The position numbers and the translations under genes were made by a program. The notes under the pieces were generated by a model, which saw only the letters and a list, made by a program, of their open reading frames with translations, made no database searches and was not told the DNA's origin. Source: an uncultured delta proteobacterium (GTDB lineage: Bacteria; Desulfobacterota; Zymogenia; Zymogenales; Zymogenaceae). Taken from it: a stretch of 64,000 bases of DNA. Location of the stretch: the NCBI GenBank assembly GCA_963735595.1, contig CAVTLK010000004.1, positions 64,001 through 128,000 of the forward strand, in the 5' to 3' direction. Positions 15,001-23,410 of this stretch are shown in pieces (within the stretch, counting starts at the first letter, position 1; each line of letters begins with the position of its first letter).

Positions 15001-16045
15001 AAAAGTGGCGACTGTCGATACATCCAGATAATAATCTGTGGCATTTGTCGATGCACTCCAGTTGGCTCTTATTGATGTACAGGCTGCGTTTGAGCCTGCA
15101 TTGGCTGTTGGAGCCAGTGGTACTGGGATTACCGTAATATTTTTTGTCACTGTCGATCCGCAATATGGTGTAGTGGGATATCGCCACTCGACACTCATAA
15201 TCCCGGAAGTTCCTGTCGCATCCACTGTTATATCTTTTGTCGTATTGCCGGCAAGATTAGTCCATCCGGCAGGCGGGGTCCAGTTATAAACCGTAGCGCC
15301 TCCAATAAGCTGATTTGCAGGAGGATTAGGTAATGAATATGCTAAACCCACAGTGTTTAAACAAACCGGCGAAGGCCCAGTAATTATATCCGACAGTGTT
15401 AAAGACTCTCTGATTGTGAGAACAATTGGTGTAGCAGGGCTGACGCATCCATTAACACCCCCATTTACCTGTGTAACATAGAAAGTAGCAGTACTTGCAG
15501 GCGTGTTGGGAATACCAGTAGTATAACTATTTGTATTGTTTGATCCAGGAGCAACTGTGGTAAGTGTTGCGTCTGTGAACCAGTAAAAAGTCGCACCTGC
15601 CATTCCGGTAACTGTTAAAGGCAGAACAGCACTTCCAACACATATTGTTCCGTTTATAGGGATTGGGGCAGGAGAGAAGGAATTAGTCTTAAACGGGAAA
15701 TGGTTGTTACTGCATTTACAAAAGCAAAAGGAGTTCCGTCATAAATATTACAGGGACCCCAGTATCTCATTGTGACTTCAATTACATCATCTGCTACATC
15801 TGTTGAGAGATTACCTTTATGATAAATTGGGTAAGTAGTTGCACGAGGGGTAATTAGAAGTTTCAATCTATATAGAATAGATAGTTTACTACAGGTCCTT
15901 CATATGGAATTGGATTTCCGACTGCATCGGTAATCCAGACCGTATCTCCTGGTGCTCTAATTAATCCTGTATGAGGGATACTAGGAGTGGTTTGAGTGGA
16001 ATATACATATTGAACATACCTTGGCTTAATATTTGGTAATTCTAC
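1..16045 (-). CDS. Giant repetitive cell-surface/secreted protein (FN3-like + PKD-like + Ig-like repeats), >5,000 aa, truncated at both ends and split by many indels
   Basis: Successive minus-strand ORFs (15863-16087, 14944-15603, 13835-14614, 12487-13185, 8761-11166, 7171-8511, 3993-7187, 1820-3037, 1121-1705, 253-1257) continue one another across frameshifts with the same Thr/Gly/Val/Pro-rich beta-sandwich repeats and no intergenic gaps. Reading continues to position 1 (...DSNGCYG...NMGCTPA, a PKD-like start). Confidence 0.85.
1420..9520 (-). repeat. Array of 28 PKD-like repeats (~95 aa)
   Basis: I counted 28 units of the form xxxICSGGTFxxTP...GIVPAGTTYxW...ISGTLTN...TATYTVTPxSGxCTGxxFTVTVTVNP across the ORF fragments. 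Confidence 0.88.
11090..15115 (-). repeat. Array of 14 FN3-like repeats (~96 aa, ~288-289 nt)
   Basis: The YYYRVRA-type motif recurs 14 times at ~288-nt spacing. Unit: SYATLPATPAPPTANAGSNAACTSISANWSASTDATDYYLDVST...YNNLDVNNVVTYSVTGLTAGTTYYYRVRAGNSCGTS. Confidence 0.9.
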
Positions 16046-16046
16046 A

Positions 16047-18615
16047 GGGCAGAACATTGTCGTCGTGACGGCCACGTCGAGCGGCAAGACTCTATGCTAC
16101 AACCTCCCCGGTCATCGAGCGCTTGCTTGTTGAGCGGGAGGGCAGAGCCCTCTACATCTATCCCATCAATGCGCTGGTGAATGATCAGCTCAAGAGCCTG
16201 TTCAAGATTAACCTGGCGCTGGGCCGGGAAGCCCTTGGAGTTGCCCGATACACTGGCTCGCTCAGCGCGGAAAAGCGTCGCGATACGCGTGCTCGCCAAC
16301 CGAACATCTTCCTTACCAATCCCGAGATGGTGCATCTGAGCTTTTTACTGTGGCATCAGAATTGGCAAGACCTGTGGCGTAACCTGCGTTTCATCGTCAT
16401 CGACGAGGTGCACACCTACCGAGGGGTGTTCGGCTCGAACATGGCTCAACTCCTTCGCCGTGTCCTGCGTATGGCAGAGCATTACGGGGCCATTCCCCAA
16501 TTCGTCTGTTGCTCAGCAACGATCGCCAACCCCAAGGAATTGGTCCAGAACTTGATAGGCCGTGAGTTCCACGTCGTCGATCACGATGGTGCCGGCCGCG
16601 GGCAACGTTATTTCGTGCTCTGGAATCCGCCACTGACCAGTGCAGATGGAAGCAATGTTCGCCGCTCCTATGTTGAGGAGTCAGTGGACTTGCTACTGCA
16701 TTGCATTCGCGCAAGCTACAATACCATCCTCTTTGCCCGCGCCCGTCGATTGACGGAACGCATGTTGCGGCTGACCAAGGCAACGAACCAAACGCTAGTC
16801 GAGACCAACCATGGACAGGCAATTAGCTCTTACCGCGCCGGGTACCTGTCTGAGGAGCGAGAGGAGATCGAGTCCAGGCTCAAGACAGGGGATATTAGAG
16901 GTATCATCACCACCAATGCGCTAGAGATGGGCATCGATATCGGCGGGCTCGATGCCGCCATCATTGCGGGGTACCCGGGAACCATCATGTCTACCTGGCA
17001 GCAGGCCGGACGCGCGGGACGGCGGGGACGTGACGCGCTGATCTTCCTCGTTGCTTCCCAGAACCCTCTGGACCAATACTATATGGGCCATCCACAGGAG
17101 TTCTTTGCCCGACCCCACGAGCTGGCTGTGGTCGATCTGCAGAACCCCTACATCCGGCTCAAACACCTTCTTTGTGGCGCAAGGGAGTTGCCCTTGACCG
17201 CAGACGAATTGTCCCGCATGGAGCCTGACTTGCAGGACACGGTCTACGAGCTGCGAGACCGGCAGCTCTTGGAGCCCTGCAAGCTAGCCGACAACTCGGA
17301 AGGCTTGACTTGTCCTCAGGGCCGGCGCGATATTCACTTTCGTGTGGCGCTTCGCTCTGCCAGCCATGAGACCTTTCATATCCTGGACCAGGACCGCAAT
17401 GAGATCGGCACGATAGAGCCACCGAACGCCTATCGCGAAGCACACCCGGGGGCCATCTATCAGCATGGCGAGGACGACTACCGCGTCGTCTCCCTCCGCA
17501 AAAGGGATAACACCATCCTGGTACGTCCAGAGGCTGCTCCGCATTACACTCGGTCGCTGAGTATGCTTGGCGTCCATATCGAGGGTATCCATGCCTCGCG
17601 TTTCCTGACCCCTGCCGAGTCGGGAGTCGGAACGCCCTTCGGGGTGGTCCACGGTGATGTTTTGGTGGAAGAAAAGGTCTACGGCTACGAAGAGCTCCAG
17701 TGGGGCACGGAGGAAATGGTCAAGCGGGTCAATCTCGACTATCCCTTGATTATGCGCTTGCATACCACGGCTATGTGGTTGACGTTGCCTCCTGGGCTGG
17801 AACAATGGCTCTCGGTCCGGATTGGTCTGCAGGTGACTGACGATGCGGATGCGACAGAACCACTCGATGGGGAAGCTCTACTGGCACGAGGATTGCACGG
17901 CGTCGAGCACCTTCTCACCGGCGTCTTGCCCCTTCTCGTCATGTGTGATCGGCGTGATGTGGATGGTTATCACCTCCTCAGGCTCCCGGGGCTCGATGCC
18001 CCAGCGGTTTTTGTGTACGATTCCTACGAAGGAGGGATCGGCCTGGCGGAGGTCGCCTACCAGCGTGTCACCGAGCTGTTGCAGCTGGCCTACAGCACCG
18101 TCGCGAGTTGTCCATGCAATGCGGGGTGCCCCTCGTGCATTCAGTCGGGTGCCTGTCGTCAGCGCAATGACATGCTGCATAAAGGGGCTGCGCAAGCTAT
18201 TCTGGCCCTTCTTGCGGAGTCAGGCTCTATGCCCAGTGGCGCGGGACCCCTACTGGACTCCCCAATCAACTCCCTAGCCGCACATGGGCAGAGCATGGCC
18301 CGCCCTGACATGAGCCGGAAGCGAGCCCTGCAAGATTTGCTGGAGCGTACTCGTGAGCAAGGCATTCGCCAGCGTATTTCGGCATCGGAGAAGGCGGAAT
18401 CCAGTGTCCCGGGCGAGTCCCGTTTTGTACGAGGCGATCAGGTCGAGTATTCGCTCTATGGACGGGGTACCGTTCTCTCTCCCCGCCTGGATGGCGATCG
18501 GCAGATCGTTATTGTGCGCTTTGCGCACCGCAACCTGGTGAAAGAGATCGATGGATCACGGTGCACGCTGCTCAAAAGGGGCGATGACGCTGACAAAATA
18601 GAACAAATGTACTAA
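16047..18615 (+). CDS. DEAD/DEAH-box SF2 helicase with DUF1998 Zn domain (MrfA/YprA/SftH/Hrq1 family), 5'-truncated at the junction
   Basis: Walker A (VVVTATSSGKTLCYNLP) at ~16056-16110 in a shifted frame; YPINALVNDQ, TNPEM, DEVH, SATIANP, TNALEMGIDIG, QQAGRAGR; C-terminal YDSYEGGIG...CPCNAGCPSC. Confidence 0.93.
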
Positions 18616-18618
18616 TAT
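18590..18618 (+). promoter_or_regulatory. Sigma70-type promoter (CTGACA-N17-TAATAT) with a LexA/SOS-type box AGAAC-AAAT-GTACT in the spacer
   Basis: Sequence ctgacaaaatagaacaaatgtactaatat. The box at 18600-18613 matches GAAC-N4-GTTC/GTAC and lies ~60 nt upstream of the radical SAM start codon. Confidence 0.75.
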
Positions 18619-18674
18619 GGGATCATGGATGGAGGCCTTGTTGCATCACGATCTACAGTGATCGGAGGCCAGGG

Positions 18675-19795
18675 ATGGACCTGCTGCAAAAGATTGACGT
18701 GCTGGGCGAGTCCGCACGCTTTGATATCTGCCGAGGATGTGGAAGCCACGACAGCCGGGTCAAAGACGACCTGGGACGCTGGATCTATCCGGCTGTGCGA
18801 CCTGATGGCAAGCGCATCGACATGCTCAAGATACTACAGAGCAATGTCTGCGAAAAAGACTGCGCCTATTGCGCCAATCGGAGCGACCGCGATGTGCACC
18901 GTATGACCTTCAAGCCGGATGAGTTGGCCCGCGGTTTTTCCGAGTTGCTGCGTCGCGGACGTGTGCAGGGGCTCTTTTTGAGTTCGGGCGTGTGTGGGAA
19001 TGTAGGCCAGGCCACGGAGCGCATGCTGGCCACCGTGGAGATCCTGCGACGCCGGTATCTTTTTGGCGGCTACATTCACCTCAAGATCCTTCCGGGCGCC
19101 GACGATGCCAGTATTGAGGCTGCTGTGCGCATGGCAAACCGAGTTTCGGTAAACTTGGAAGCTCCCAATGCACGTCGCATTGGCGCGTTGAGCAAAGGCA
19201 AGGATTTCGAGCAGGACCTGGTGATGCCGCTGCGCAAAGCCCACAGAATCAGGCAGTATATCGGGCGCGCCGTCAGCATGACCACCCAATTCGTGGTGGG
19301 CGCCGCAGACGAGTCTGACAGCGAGATCCTCACGACCTCGACACAGCTCTACGGCGACTTGCGCCTCGCCCGTGCTTACTACAGTGCTTTTCAACCCATT
19401 AGCGACACGCCTTGGAGAACCACCCTGCCACGCCCGCATGGCGCGAGCATCGCCTCTATCAGGCCGATTTTCTGTTGCGGCAGTATGGGTTCGGGTTGCA
19501 GGAGATCGTCTTCCAACAGGATGGTAACCTGGCCCGCGAAGTGGATCCCAAGCTCCAGTGGGCGCTCCATCATCCCGAGTTCTTTCCTCTTGAGATTAAC
19601 ATAGCTAGCTCTGAGGAGTTGTTGCGCGTGCCGGGCATTGGGCCCGTATCGGCGCAACGTATCGTGCAGCAGCGCAGGCAGGGCAGGCTCAAGGATCTCA
19701 GCCATATCTGCTTGGGCGGCGCAGATAGCGGACGCGCTGCGCCTTTCATCCTTCTTGATGGAAAACGGCCCAACTTCCAGTTATCTTTCTGGTGA
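18675..19795 (+). CDS. Putative DNA modification/repair radical SAM protein with C-terminal helix-hairpin-helix (TIGR03916-like); one frameshift near 19410
   Basis: CEKDCAYC (CxxxCxxC), GLFLSSG, GYIHLKILPGA, ANRVSVNLEAP, RAYYSAFQP, REHRLYQADFLLRQYGF, INIASSEELLRVPGIG (HhH). Confidence 0.9.
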
Positions 19796-19858
19796 TCCCG
19801 CCCCCGCTACAGTATAATGGGTCGCACTCTACGATAATGACTTGAGGAGGGGGATGCC

Positions 19859-21011
19859 ATGTTGGCCACGAGAGAGAAATTGGAGACCCTGGAGGCTCAG
19901 CAACTTGCCCCTTATGCCCAACTATCCCAGAACTCGCGTGGGCGCACACATCCCGAGCCTGAACACGGCTACCGCACGGCTTTCCAACGAGATCGCGACC
20001 GCATCCTGCACACCACAGCCTTTCGGCGACTGGAATACAAGACCCAGGTTTTTGTGATCGATGAGGGGGATTATTACCGCACGCGCCTTACGCACACACT
20101 TGAGGTGGCGCAGGTTGCACGTACCTTGGCGCGCACTCTGCTGGTCAATTCCGAGCTAACAGAGGCGATCGCTATGGCGCATGACCTGGGCCATACCCCT
20201 TTTGGACACGCCGGCGAAGCTGCCCTTCACGAACTGATGGCAGAGAAGGGGGGGTTCAATCACAATACTCAGAGCCTGCGCATTGTAGAAGTCTTGGAGA
20301 TTCGCTATCCCGACTTTGCCGGACTGAACCTCACCTGGGAGGTCCGCGAAGGGATCATCAAGCATGCCACGGATTATGATACGCCGGAGGCGATAGCCTA
20401 CGAGCCGAACTGCCGCTCCTCTGTGGAAGGGCAGATCATTAACCTGGCCGACGAGATCGCTCTACAATACCCACGATCTGGATGATGGTCTGCGCTCGGG
20501 AATCATCGATCCCAAGCAGCTCCGGAGCTTGGAGCTTTGGGATGAAACCCTGGAGGCCCTCGACTTGTGTGGGCACGAAGTAACGGAGCTGGAGAGGCGT
20601 CGTATCATTCGCCACCTAGTGAACCTCGAAGTGACCGACGCCCTGGAAGCGACAGATCTCGCCTTGCAGCAGGCCAACCCCCAATCCCCCGATGAGGTGC
20701 GTCATCTAGCCCAGGATGTGGTGCGTTTCTCCCCATCGATGAAGCGGAAAAACCAGGAATTGAAGAGCTTTATGCTCAAGAATATGTACCATCACTGGCG
20801 GGTGATGCGCATGTCCGAGAAAGCCAAGCGAATGCTCACCCAGTTGTTCCAGACCTACGAGGCTGCACCCTACCAGCTACCTGACTGGGTACAGGCACGC
20901 GTGGATGGTGAAGGGTTGGAGCGGGTCATCTGTGACTATGTCGCCGGAATGACAGATCGGTTCGCCATGCAAGAGTTCCGCAAAATGTTCGATCCGGACG
21001 AACGAGTTTAG
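19859..21011 (+). CDS. dgt: Deoxyguanosinetriphosphate triphosphohydrolase (HD-domain dNTPase); frameshift near 20465
   Basis: [51 protein letters not shown]-terminal [11 protein letters not shown]. Confidence 0.93.
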
Positions 21012-21058
21012 ACCGGGCGCTTGACTGATAGCCAGACGGCGTTGTAGGACAACAGCCG

Positions 21059-22422
21059 TCAAGGCAACTGGTCGTTTTTCTCCGCAATGAGCTCGACGCG
21101 CAGTCGCTCAAAATGCGCGTTCCCTTTCTCCCTATCCTGAAGATACGAGAATTCCTGAACAGTGGCCGTAACCACTAGTGAGAGGGTCTCCAAGGGGATG
21201 ATGGCGCCCGGCTGGACCACCATCACGTCGCCCTTTTCGGCGAGTCTGGAGTTCAGTGCGGGGTCGTTGAAAGCATACTCGCTCACTAGAATCTGGCGCA
21301 CCGTGCGAATGTCGCCCTTGTCGAATAGCCATATCTCAAAGGCATCCACCCTCTGTGGCCCTTCTCCCACGGCATAGTCCACCGCGCCGACACCGCATTC
21401 ACCGAGAAACTCGTGATCGGGCGTCTCAATCGTGAAATTGCAGTCAAAATCGTCGTCGCCATAGGCATAGTCCGCCTCCCAGATGCCCAAGACATCGGGG
21501 GGCAACTCACTGCGTGCCACCTCGGGATGTACTATGGCGCGAGAGGCGATCTCTCTCCTCCTCTTCTTCTTCCTCTTCCCAATCCTCATTCAGGTCCAAC
21601 GGGGCAACCGCCTCCTGCTCTGGGAGCGCTTCCGGTGCAACGGGGGGCGCCTGGGGCTCTGCTGTAGCTGCCCCCTGTTCTTCAGGAGCGATGTACTCGC
21701 CCGGGACGGTTAGCTCTGCATCGAGTGGCTCCTCAATATCTTCGACTATGTCCGTCTCGCCCGCTAGGGCCTGCGCCGAGGCTGTTGATCGATAGGTCGC
21801 CCTGTTCTCCAATGGTGGCGTGGCATCGCCTGACACAGTGGTCGTAGTCACCGTCCGGGTTTGTGTTACTTTGGCACGGGCGGCCTGTAATGGGGAAGTC
21901 GACACTGCCGCTGCTTCGCCGGCGCCAGTGAGTAGGAGCCAAGCCGCTAGGCCGATCAACAGTACCAGGGCAATAACCAGGACAGGCAGAAGCAAGGGGT
22001 TATCCGAAAACCGGATACGGTATTGTGGCTCCTGGAACTGGGCAGCGGTTGCTGATGGCATCTGCAAAGTCTGGGCCATGCGCCGAATCAAGAGAGCGCC
22101 TCCGGCATCCCCTGCGTTTTCTCGCTCTCTGGCAACGCGATCCACCAAGTTGGCCACCTGTGCCCAAGAGGTGCTTCTTCTCATCCTGCAATTCGGCAAG
22201 CCCCTGTCGCGCCTGCTCCACATTGCCAGTCTGAGCAAACGATTCGGCCGCCATACGCACATAGGCTTTCTGGTGCTCGATCCGCAGATCAGAGGGGTCC
22301 GTATTATACCATGTGACTGGCCAGATCTGCCAGCCGAATAGCAGTCCAAATAGCGTACCCAGCACCAGAGTGATCAGCATAAAAGGCAAGGCACTACGTA
22401 CTCGAGCTTCCATGTGGGTCAT
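21059..22422 (-). CDS. Conserved hypothetical membrane-anchored protein (Chloroflexota-like); frameshifted
   Basis: N-terminal TM plus GWQIWPVTWYNTDPSDL, a second TM, an acidic linker and a C-terminal domain FLGECGVG...AFEIWLFDKGDIRTV. The ATG overlaps the upstream stop (ATGA). Pieced together from ORFs 22000-22470, 21507-22349 and 21059-21589. Confidence 0.65.
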
Positions 22423-22979
22423 CTCCTCTGCACTACCGGCATCTTGGGCGCCCCGGTCAGTACACGACATCCCTCCGCCGTCACGACGACCATATCCTCG
22501 ATACGATCACCCGCCCCAGCCAGGAATATAGATCCCCGGCTCGACTGTCACCACAGTCCCTACTTGAAGCAGATCCTTCGATGTGACACCTGCGCGTGGC
22601 TTCTCGTGGATCGCCAGACCAACACCATGGCCCAAGCCATGGCCGAACTTGCCCTCATAGCCGGCGCCATAGATCATCTGGCGCGCTATAGCATCTACTT
22701 GTGCCCCTGGCAACCCGGGGACGATCGCTGCCTCGGCGGCTTGTTGCGCCTGAAGAACTAGTTCCCAGATACGACGGTACTCGTCACTGGCGTGGCCGAG
22801 GCAAAAAGAGCGGGTCAGGTCAGAGCAGTATCCCTCGTACTTGGCCCCCATGTCGATCACGACAGGATCACCGCGTTGTATGGCCCGATCAGACGTGACC
22901 GCATGGGCCATAGCCGCATTTGGCCCAGAGGCTACAATCGTTGTGAATGATACTTGCTCGGCGCCGTGTGTACGCATAT
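22419..22979 (-). CDS. Xaa-Pro aminopeptidase/dipeptidase (M24), C-terminal part only
   Basis: IVASGPNAAMAH, IDMGAKYEGYCSDLTRSF, GHGLGHGVGLAIHE, TVEPGIY; cut at the second junction. Confidence 0.9.
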
Positions 22980-22980
22980 G

Positions 22981-23410
22981 TACAAGAACCCCGAGGCCAC
23001 CAAGAACGCCATCAAGGACGGTTGGGTCCACTCCGGCGACCTGGGGAAAATGGACGACGAGGGCTACATCACCCTGGTCGACCGTAAGAAAGACATGATC
23101 ATCACCGGCGGCGAGAACGTCTACAGCAAGGAAGTGGAGGACGCCATCTTCGAGAACCCCAAGGTGGCCGACGCCGTCATCATCGGCATGCCGCATCCCA
23201 CCTGGGGCGAGACGGTAACGGCCGTCGTGGTGACCAGGCCAAATGAGACGCTCACCCTCGACGAGCTCAGGGAATTCCTCACAGACAAGGCTTGCGGACT
23301 ACAAGATCCCGCGGAAACTGGAAGTCATCGAAGCCCTGCCGCGCAACGTTGCCGGCAAGGTCCTCAAGTACCAGCTCAGGGACCAGTTCAAGGCAAAGGC
23401 GGACAAATAG
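22981..23410 (+). CDS. AMP-dependent acyl-CoA synthetase, C-terminal fragment; frameshift near 23290
   Basis: DGWVHSGDLG..DDEGYITLVDRKKDMIITGGENVYSKEVE; shifted frame YKIPRKLEVIEALPRNVAGKVLK. Confidence 0.9.

Follow-up and report, generated by a model that had tools for sequence, protein, structure and literature searches.

According to one account (PMC7797055), it is not known how helicases of the MrfA family are directed to the DNA they act on. The locus described here, which lies in a stretch of 64,000 nucleotides referred to below as the window, encodes a DUF1998 helicase that continues beyond its zinc-binding domain into a further domain resembling the Tudor domain of PcrA and UvrD. A preliminary description of the sequence took the protein to be a crosslink-repair helicase recruited to RNA polymerase (RNAP). 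Is this tail genuine, where does it come from, and what might it bind?

The gene lies in a segment (Table 1) whose origin has to be considered before anything else. Two contigs of an Anaerolineales genome, G001, are 98% identical to this segment and have no match in its flanks; the RpoB and UvrB proteins of the contig's own genome, G000, are 54% and 59% identical, respectively, to those of G001; and both joins cut through genes. In addition, seven further G001 loci find no match in G000 at the 90% level, and at 16 kb of the window the GC content rises, from a value of about 0.45 to one of 0.55-0.60. Judging from these observations, the 7-kb stretch is probably a chimeric read within the contig. 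The first 16 kb of the window, which abut the Anaerolineales stretch, form a lower-GC, repeat-protein region, while the DNA on its 3' side belongs to the main organism, and features spanning either join are suspect. Compared with the G001 locus (L001), the stretch carries single-base indels near 16111 and 18591 and two more in the next gene. The 5' end of the helicase gene is cut at the junction near 16045 with the loss of about 78 N-terminal residues and, owing to the indel near 16111, is also frameshifted in the window copy; Walker A, DExH and motif VI are intact in L001 and in the family. At the 3' end L001 has one more T than the window near 18591, which places the stop after A823 and leaves a TTGACA promoter element intact, and a sequencing error probably accounts for the final seven residues of the helicase as read from the window. 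Because the linker of L001 is interrupted by a scaffold gap, the frame there rests on the homologues and not on L001 alone.

Table 1. Features of the helicase locus, in window coordinates
Feature	Position	Strand	Basis or remark
Anaerolineales-derived stretch, putative chimeric long-read insert in another organism's contig	16045..23001		identity, GC, cut genes
Helicase gene 5' remnant with Walker A motif	16045..16122	+	one-base insertion near 16111 splits it off the main frame
MrfA/YprA-family (DUF1998) SF2 helicase ORF, 830 aa as read	16123..18615	+	Pfam; likely true stop after A823
MrfA zinc-binding domain (MZB/DUF1998), residues 594-673	17902..18141	+	PF09369, E 5e-21
Linker, 67 residues (~700-766): two variable low-confidence segments flanking a conserved helix, 729-745	18220..18420	+	conservation, pLDDT
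PcrA/UvrD-type Tudor domain, residues 767-819	18421..18579	+	family profile, predicted fold
Sigma-70-type promoter of the next gene, LexA-type box in its -35/-10 spacer	18590..18618	+	L001 8477-8505
TIGR03916-like radical SAM gene, frameshifted in the window, intact in L001	18675..19795	+	adjacent in 1/21 loci

The body of the protein is that of an MrfA-type helicase. Pfam recognises DEAD, Helicase_C and MZB domains in the window protein, with WHD_HRQ1 below the cut-off, and the relatives share a RecA1/RecA2 motor followed by a winged helix (WH) and a C-terminal MZB domain; one of them (P0012) matches the Bacillus subtilis MrfA structure 6znp with an E value of 6e-148. The four-cysteine cluster at residues 663-672 (C663, C665, C669 and C672) is invariant in 60/60 sequences, together with C678, and so is R411, which aligns with R491, the rope-anchoring arginine of MrfA in 6znp. 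The protein thus resembles B. subtilis MrfA (YprA), Mycobacterium smegmatis SftH and yeast Hrq1 in its RecA1-RecA2-WH-OB-CON-MZB order, its cysteine cluster and its anchoring arginine, and 3'-to-5' DNA helicase activity may be assumed for it by analogy with MrfA and SftH. What sets it apart from all three are some 120 additional C-terminal residues holding a conserved helix and the Tudor domain. As originally described, the reading frame passes from the cysteine-cluster zinc domain through a linker of about 70 residues (67 by our count, behind the last zinc-domain helix at about residue 699) into the Tudor motif, which begins at F768. The motor and zinc domains have a mean column conservation of 0.57-0.78; the value falls to 0.19 in the first linker segment, rises to 0.56 in the helix, drops again to 0.30 in the second segment and reaches 0.60 in the Tudor tail. 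The full-length structural model follows the same pattern, with pLDDT below 50 at residues 703-724 and 747-761, a helix predicted at 729-743 and, beyond the two low-confidence segments, a Tudor domain modelled with confidence.

The assignment of the tail to the PcrA/UvrD Tudors was borne out in two ways, these domains ranking first by family profile and first by predicted fold. Taken alone, the window tail scores 15 bits (E 0.022) against the Pfam family PcrA_UvrD_tudor (PF21196) and misses the gathering cut-off of 23.9 bits, which is reached by one of 15 full-length relatives (P0026, 24.7 bits); on these scores we class it as a divergent homologue. At the level of the family the match exceeds chance: PF21196 is hit at E<=0.1 by 37 of 49 aligned tails (2.5e-7 at best), compared with eight matching the CarD/Mfd RNAP-interaction domain (RID) and four matching DUF3553, and when the profile built from these 49 tails was run against 177,635 PDB sequences, UvrD/PcrA Tudor chains came first (4c2t, E 6e-7). 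A Tudor/SH3-like fold, whose absence had been named in advance as grounds for rejecting the idea, is indeed predicted: the AlphaFold model of the tail has five strands at a pLDDT of 84.6, and the top six Foldseek matches are all PcrA/UvrD Tudors (5dma, E 4e-4, rmsd 1.8). In a VIA-align comparison with 48,161 chains, PcrA/UvrD Tudors are the only three at Z>=8 (5dma, Z 8.8, rmsd 1.8, 53 aligned residues; 7egs, Z 8.8, rmsd 1.7, 54 residues; 9dqs, Z 8.4, rmsd 2.2, 52 residues) and are followed by unrelated small barrels at Z 7.7 or less. The predicted fold alone thus sets PcrA/UvrD Tudors apart modestly and the profile adds specificity; together they point to these domains rather than to CarD/Mfd or KOW domains. 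With the tail profile, nine PcrA Tudors from Anaerolineae obtain 39-47 bits and the one from G001 36 bits, against 18-32 bits for UvrD/PcrA chains of other phyla in the PDB. This difference fits a capture of the tail from the host's own pcrA, which we regard as its likely source. The tails form a group apart from the PcrA Tudors (PcrA clade support 0.997).

Within its family the tail is constant in one close group. A set of 120 listed homologues contains a close group of 65 (P0002-P0065 and P0081, the window's own record included), of which 63 carry the Tudor tail; the remaining two also lack the cysteine cluster and look truncated. The tail is found in none of the other 55 homologues, which agrees with the earlier remark that MrfA-type helicases usually end soon after DUF1998. 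Homologues that are 48-64% identical to the window protein retain invariant Tudor residues. The named members belong to Chloroflexota or Anaerolineae; the full fusion is present in 21 of 61 relatives of G001, with one more cut by a contig end, and among 401 phylum-wide genomes (four unpublished ones included) a close member occurs in G001 only. In a tree of 38 sequences, the 12 tailed proteins form one clade with a support of 1.0, sister to tail-less Chloroflexota proteins, a topology that fits a single gain. Wider searches did not extend this range: a C-terminal profile search limited to 7998 candidates contributed 29 more helicases, whose matches cover just 16-40% of the query, the Atlas showed no cluster of helicase-Tudor architecture, and outside the clade the 40 listed of 46 plasmid records do not cover the tail. 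A single-sequence search with residues 660-830 returned only two proteins, a number that understates the size of the family. The fusion is real and is conserved in a narrow Anaerolineae clade, seen here in metagenome-derived records. Other extensions occur in the wider family. The Methanosarcina-labelled YprA homologues (P0086-P0121 except P0092) continue past the zinc domain into another conserved extension, some 150 residues long, which begins with a basic helix, is shortened in P0100 and P0114 and gives no match to the Tudor profile. Two short fragments, P0135 and P0136, show a related Tudor after a basic helix, with a different last hairpin, and may represent a second tailed protein family.

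If the tail is a PcrA-type Tudor, is it equipped to do what the PcrA Tudor does? In PcrA, each of the substitutions H681A, W684A, K712A and L714A severely reduced the pull-down of RNAP (PMC5397179). A structural alignment of 53 on 53 residues with 5dma (672-724) places these four positions at Y776, Y779, K807 and I809 of the window protein, and allowed 63 tails to be compared with ten Anaerolineae PcrA Tudors. The substitution of the conserved histidine by tyrosine, which had been noticed at the outset, holds for Y776 and is shared by L001. Across the 63 tails the H681 position is His in 37, Gln in 14 and Leu in eight, the W684 position Tyr or Phe in 62, the K712 position Lys or Arg in 47 and the L714 position hydrophobic in 62. 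All four positions are chemically kept in 23/63 tails and the latter three together in 47/63, whereas His, aromatic, Lys and Leu are all present in 10/10 Anaerolineae PcrA Tudors. The window tail keeps three of the four RNAP-binding residues chemically, and the pocket of the family as a whole is, by this comparison, recognisable yet relaxed, the window's lineage having lost the histidine (Cys in P0122). Two arginines that are not conserved in the PcrA Tudors are near-invariant in the tails (R799 in 61/63, R803 in 62/63), and all 63 tails have a positive net charge, from +1 to +10 with a mean of +4.6, compared with a mean of +0.2 for the PcrA Tudors.

The target of the PcrA Tudor is known: it binds a TGE beta-hairpin that occurs in RpoB as well as in UvrB, the two proteins competing for the Tudor, and the published motif reads [VIL]-D-x-x-T-G-E-[VIL]-[VILT] (PMC8318588). 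The first eight positions of this motif find five matches in G001 and one in a reversed control, and RpoB and UvrB are among the five. The motif of RpoB is strict in 20/29 and loose in 28/29 inserts (29 aligned of 58 genomes with a match); in these Anaerolineae (L070-L099) it lies within a lineage-specific insert of 59 residues, near position 500 of the RpoB frame used. For UvrB, the motif is strict in 17 of 29 loci, with TGE in 22 and TGQ in three, four loci not being read. The RpoB motif occurs in genomes both with and without the Tudor-tailed helicase, so that PcrA alone explains its presence; the motif in host RpoB and UvrB makes docking of the tail possible, and PcrA equally accounts for it. 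A complex prediction combining the tail (49-row alignment) with the RpoB insert of G001 (29-row alignment) scored 0.05 and 0.00 against a mark of 0.32, which with the controls not folded counts neither for nor against docking. The remaining G001 carriers of the motif are ORFs resembling a penicillin-binding protein and pyruvate phosphate dikinase (labelled by eye) and a 165-aa protein of unknown family (L039, G001:C547) which has several cysteines beside the TGE helicase-interaction motif and is a possible partner of PcrA or of the tail.

The genomic surroundings bear on what kind of helicase this is. Upstream of the tailed gene an ABC1/UbiB-type kinase is found in 17/21 loci and a NAD-dependent epimerase in 16/21, making this a stable, housekeeping position; the neighbours conserved across the 21 loci include neither an mrfB-like ORF nor a uvr gene. 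Instead, mrfB adjoins another DUF1998 paralogue in 7/8 loci of that class. These canonical mrfA loci (L150, L162-L168) have a NAD-dependent DNA ligase gene (ligA) upstream in 7/8 cases and mrfB downstream in 7/8, and up to three DUF1998 paralogues can be distinguished per genome: one with MrfB, a solo tail-less YprA and the Tudor-tailed protein. Among the 21 fusion genomes, an MrfB-type gene is present in 18, and 19 show one or more additional matches to DUF1998 helicases. No LexA-type box was found in 20 regions upstream of the tailed helicase, which give no sign of SOS control acting from there. Without an mrfB neighbour or a LexA-type box, and in hosts with a separate mrfA-mrfB locus, the tailed helicase is an added paralogue distinct from the MrfAB helicase, and the label of crosslink-repair helicase given to it initially finds no support. 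Two notions were rejected: that it replaces Mfd, which scores above the cut-off in 19 of the 21 genomes, and that it replaces the Tudor of PcrA, given that in 17/21 a second, PcrA-type Tudor match lies in a frame that is either PcrA-sized or cut by the contig end (read out as PcrA for G001 only). Nor is it evidently a defence gene: the signature of YprA-based defence systems such as DISARM, Dpd, Druantia, ARMADA and TALON (an operon with methylase or nuclease partners, or a fused nuclease) was not found among its conserved neighbours, which are the kinase and the epimerase. The downstream radical SAM gene is a separate matter. Its promoter in L001 is near-consensus (score 10/12; in the window its -35 element is one T short) and, because a box nearly identical to its own precedes lexA in G001, the gene is likely SOS-controlled; a functional link with the helicase was ruled out by its own promoter and by its adjacency in a single locus of the 21.

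Recruitment to RNAP, as first proposed, is plausible by analogy with PcrA, and our preferred reading, tentative and held at rather less than even probability, is that the tail docks this MrfA/YprA-family helicase on the TGE beta-hairpin of the RNAP beta subunit, near stalled transcription complexes. That it docks on the hairpin of RpoB or UvrB, either one, is slightly more probable than not. The docking model builds on the architecture, the predicted Tudor fold and its homology, the conservation within the clade, the intact motor and zinc-domain residues of the family and the motif in the RpoB insert. In outline, the C-terminal Tudor, likely captured from the host's pcrA, would dock the helicase on the RpoB hairpin, the flexible linker allowing it to grip the hairpin via Y779, K807 and I809 as deduced from PcrA. 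The motor would then load on single-stranded DNA close to a transcription complex that has paused or stalled, move 3' to 5' by ATP hydrolysis as in MrfA (PMC7797055) and SftH, and clear an obstacle such as an adduct, a hybrid or a fork collision; it would act alongside PcrA, Mfd and the canonical MrfAB, all of which the hosts keep. The conservation of a tail carried behind variable linker segments argues for such a role, and the co-purification of yeast Hrq1 with RNA polymerase-related proteins (PMC7718736) offers a weak parallel. Against docking on RNAP stand the relaxed pocket, with its histidine in little more than half of the tails, the same motif in UvrB, the more basic character of the tails with their new arginines, and an upstream region and neighbours that suggest neither SOS control nor repair. 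The mycobacterial UvrD1 precedent also counts against it: there the Tudor has been linked to the binding of Ku, and repair in vivo does not require it (PMC11975281).

Four other explanations have to be weighed against this. The fusion could be an assembly artefact or a functionless appendage, as might be suspected from the position of the window copy in a putative chimeric, indel-rich stretch and from the substitutions between window and L001 (four non-synonymous and two synonymous in codons 742-820 compared with nine and 32 in the core, all small numbers). Yet it occurs in one frame across 63 separate protein clusters and in 21 genomes with invariant Tudor residues, so it does not depend on this assembly; these independent records refute the artefact, and the explanation as a whole is very improbable. 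The tail might instead dock on the same hairpin mainly of UvrB, bringing the helicase to excision-repair sites independently of transcription. The competition of UvrB with RNAP for the PcrA Tudor (PMC8318588), the structure of the UvrD tail on UvrB (7egt), the motif in G001 UvrB and the standing of MrfA-family enzymes as repair helicases (PMC7797055) all speak for it. The UvrB motif is, however, less constant than that of RpoB, with TGQ in three loci, and the tailed gene has no uvr neighbours. RNAP, moreover, normally far outnumbers UvrB, and we consider docking chiefly on UvrB distinctly unlikely.

The charge of the tails, R799 and R803 and the relaxed pocket histidine would also suit a Tudor repurposed as a nucleic-acid-binding arm which helps to load the motor or to hold a forked substrate. 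Here the experimental precedents diverge: the Escherichia coli UvrD tail is reported to bind DNA at 1.9-3.8 uM whereas for the PcrA tail the same source reports no DNA binding (10.1101/2020.07.06.189035). The extra arginines would equally suit the acidic TGE hairpin, and R799 may pair with E808 across the hairpin, judging from the strand register, all of which leaves this an unlikely reading. Finally, the Tudor may bind a different, lineage-specific protein, or fold back together with the linker helix to auto-regulate the motor. The separate grouping of the tails from the PcrA Tudors, the conserved helix within the linker, the UvrD1-Ku precedent and the three further G001 proteins with a TGE motif are in keeping with this, but none of the 21 loci has a candidate partner nearby and three pocket residues stay near PcrA chemistry, so that we think it rather unlikely.

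How does the tailed helicase compare with known systems? With the PcrA/UvrD Tudor (PF21196; 5dma, 7egs, 7egt, 6yi2, 9dqs) the tail shares a five-strand barrel (rmsd 1.7-1.8 over 53-54 residues), the C-terminal position after a flexible linker and the aromatic, lysine and hydrophobic residues of the pocket; it differs in sitting on an SF2 instead of an SF1 motor, in its relaxed histidine (Tyr in the window), in R799 and R803, in its more basic character and in its Pfam score below the cut-off. The RNAP-interaction domains of Mfd and CarD likewise have a Tudor-like fold and bind RNAP beta; they are described as lacking apparent homology to the PcrA Tudor and as using another site on RpoB (PMC5397179, PMC8318588), they match the tail more weakly, ranking below the PcrA/UvrD chains, and Mfd itself is kept by the hosts. 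In contrast to MrfA, the tailed helicase is not encoded beside mrfB and is an extra paralogue in addition to the canonical mrfA-mrfB pair and the solo YprA. Bell et al. 2025 divide the YprA proteins into YprA-only, MrfAB, DISARM, Dpd, Druantia, ARMADA, BRIGADE and TALON clades (PMC12458937), and by its context the tailed helicase would fit the repair-type 'YprA only' branch. The C-terminal additions described there are nucleases or an ALBA-like domain, and Tudor, SH3 and KOW are not named in the main text, although the supplementary domain tables may bear on this point. No description of a DUF1998 helicase with a Tudor domain was found in the literature covered, which takes in few of the subscription papers. 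The novelty lies in two known modules in a new, conserved combination.

The narrow clade, the metagenome-derived records and the inferred partner set limits to the significance of this finding. Within them, a naturally occurring fusion with a docking domain whose target motif is known provides a direct test of how MrfA-family helicases are targeted, and with three DUF1998 paralogues per genome targeting becomes comparable on one motor. From the fusion it would seem that the PcrA/UvrD Tudor can move as a module and is not tied to SF1 helicases. It is possible, though doubtful, that this Tudor is a portable adaptor which, grafted onto an MrfA-type helicase, has created a third RNAP-tethered motor beside Mfd and PcrA. 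If so, the tailed helicase would be a bacterial counterpart of the transcription-linked helicases in the style of RECQL5 and Hrq1, and it would find its substrates at stalled transcription complexes without the help of MrfB.
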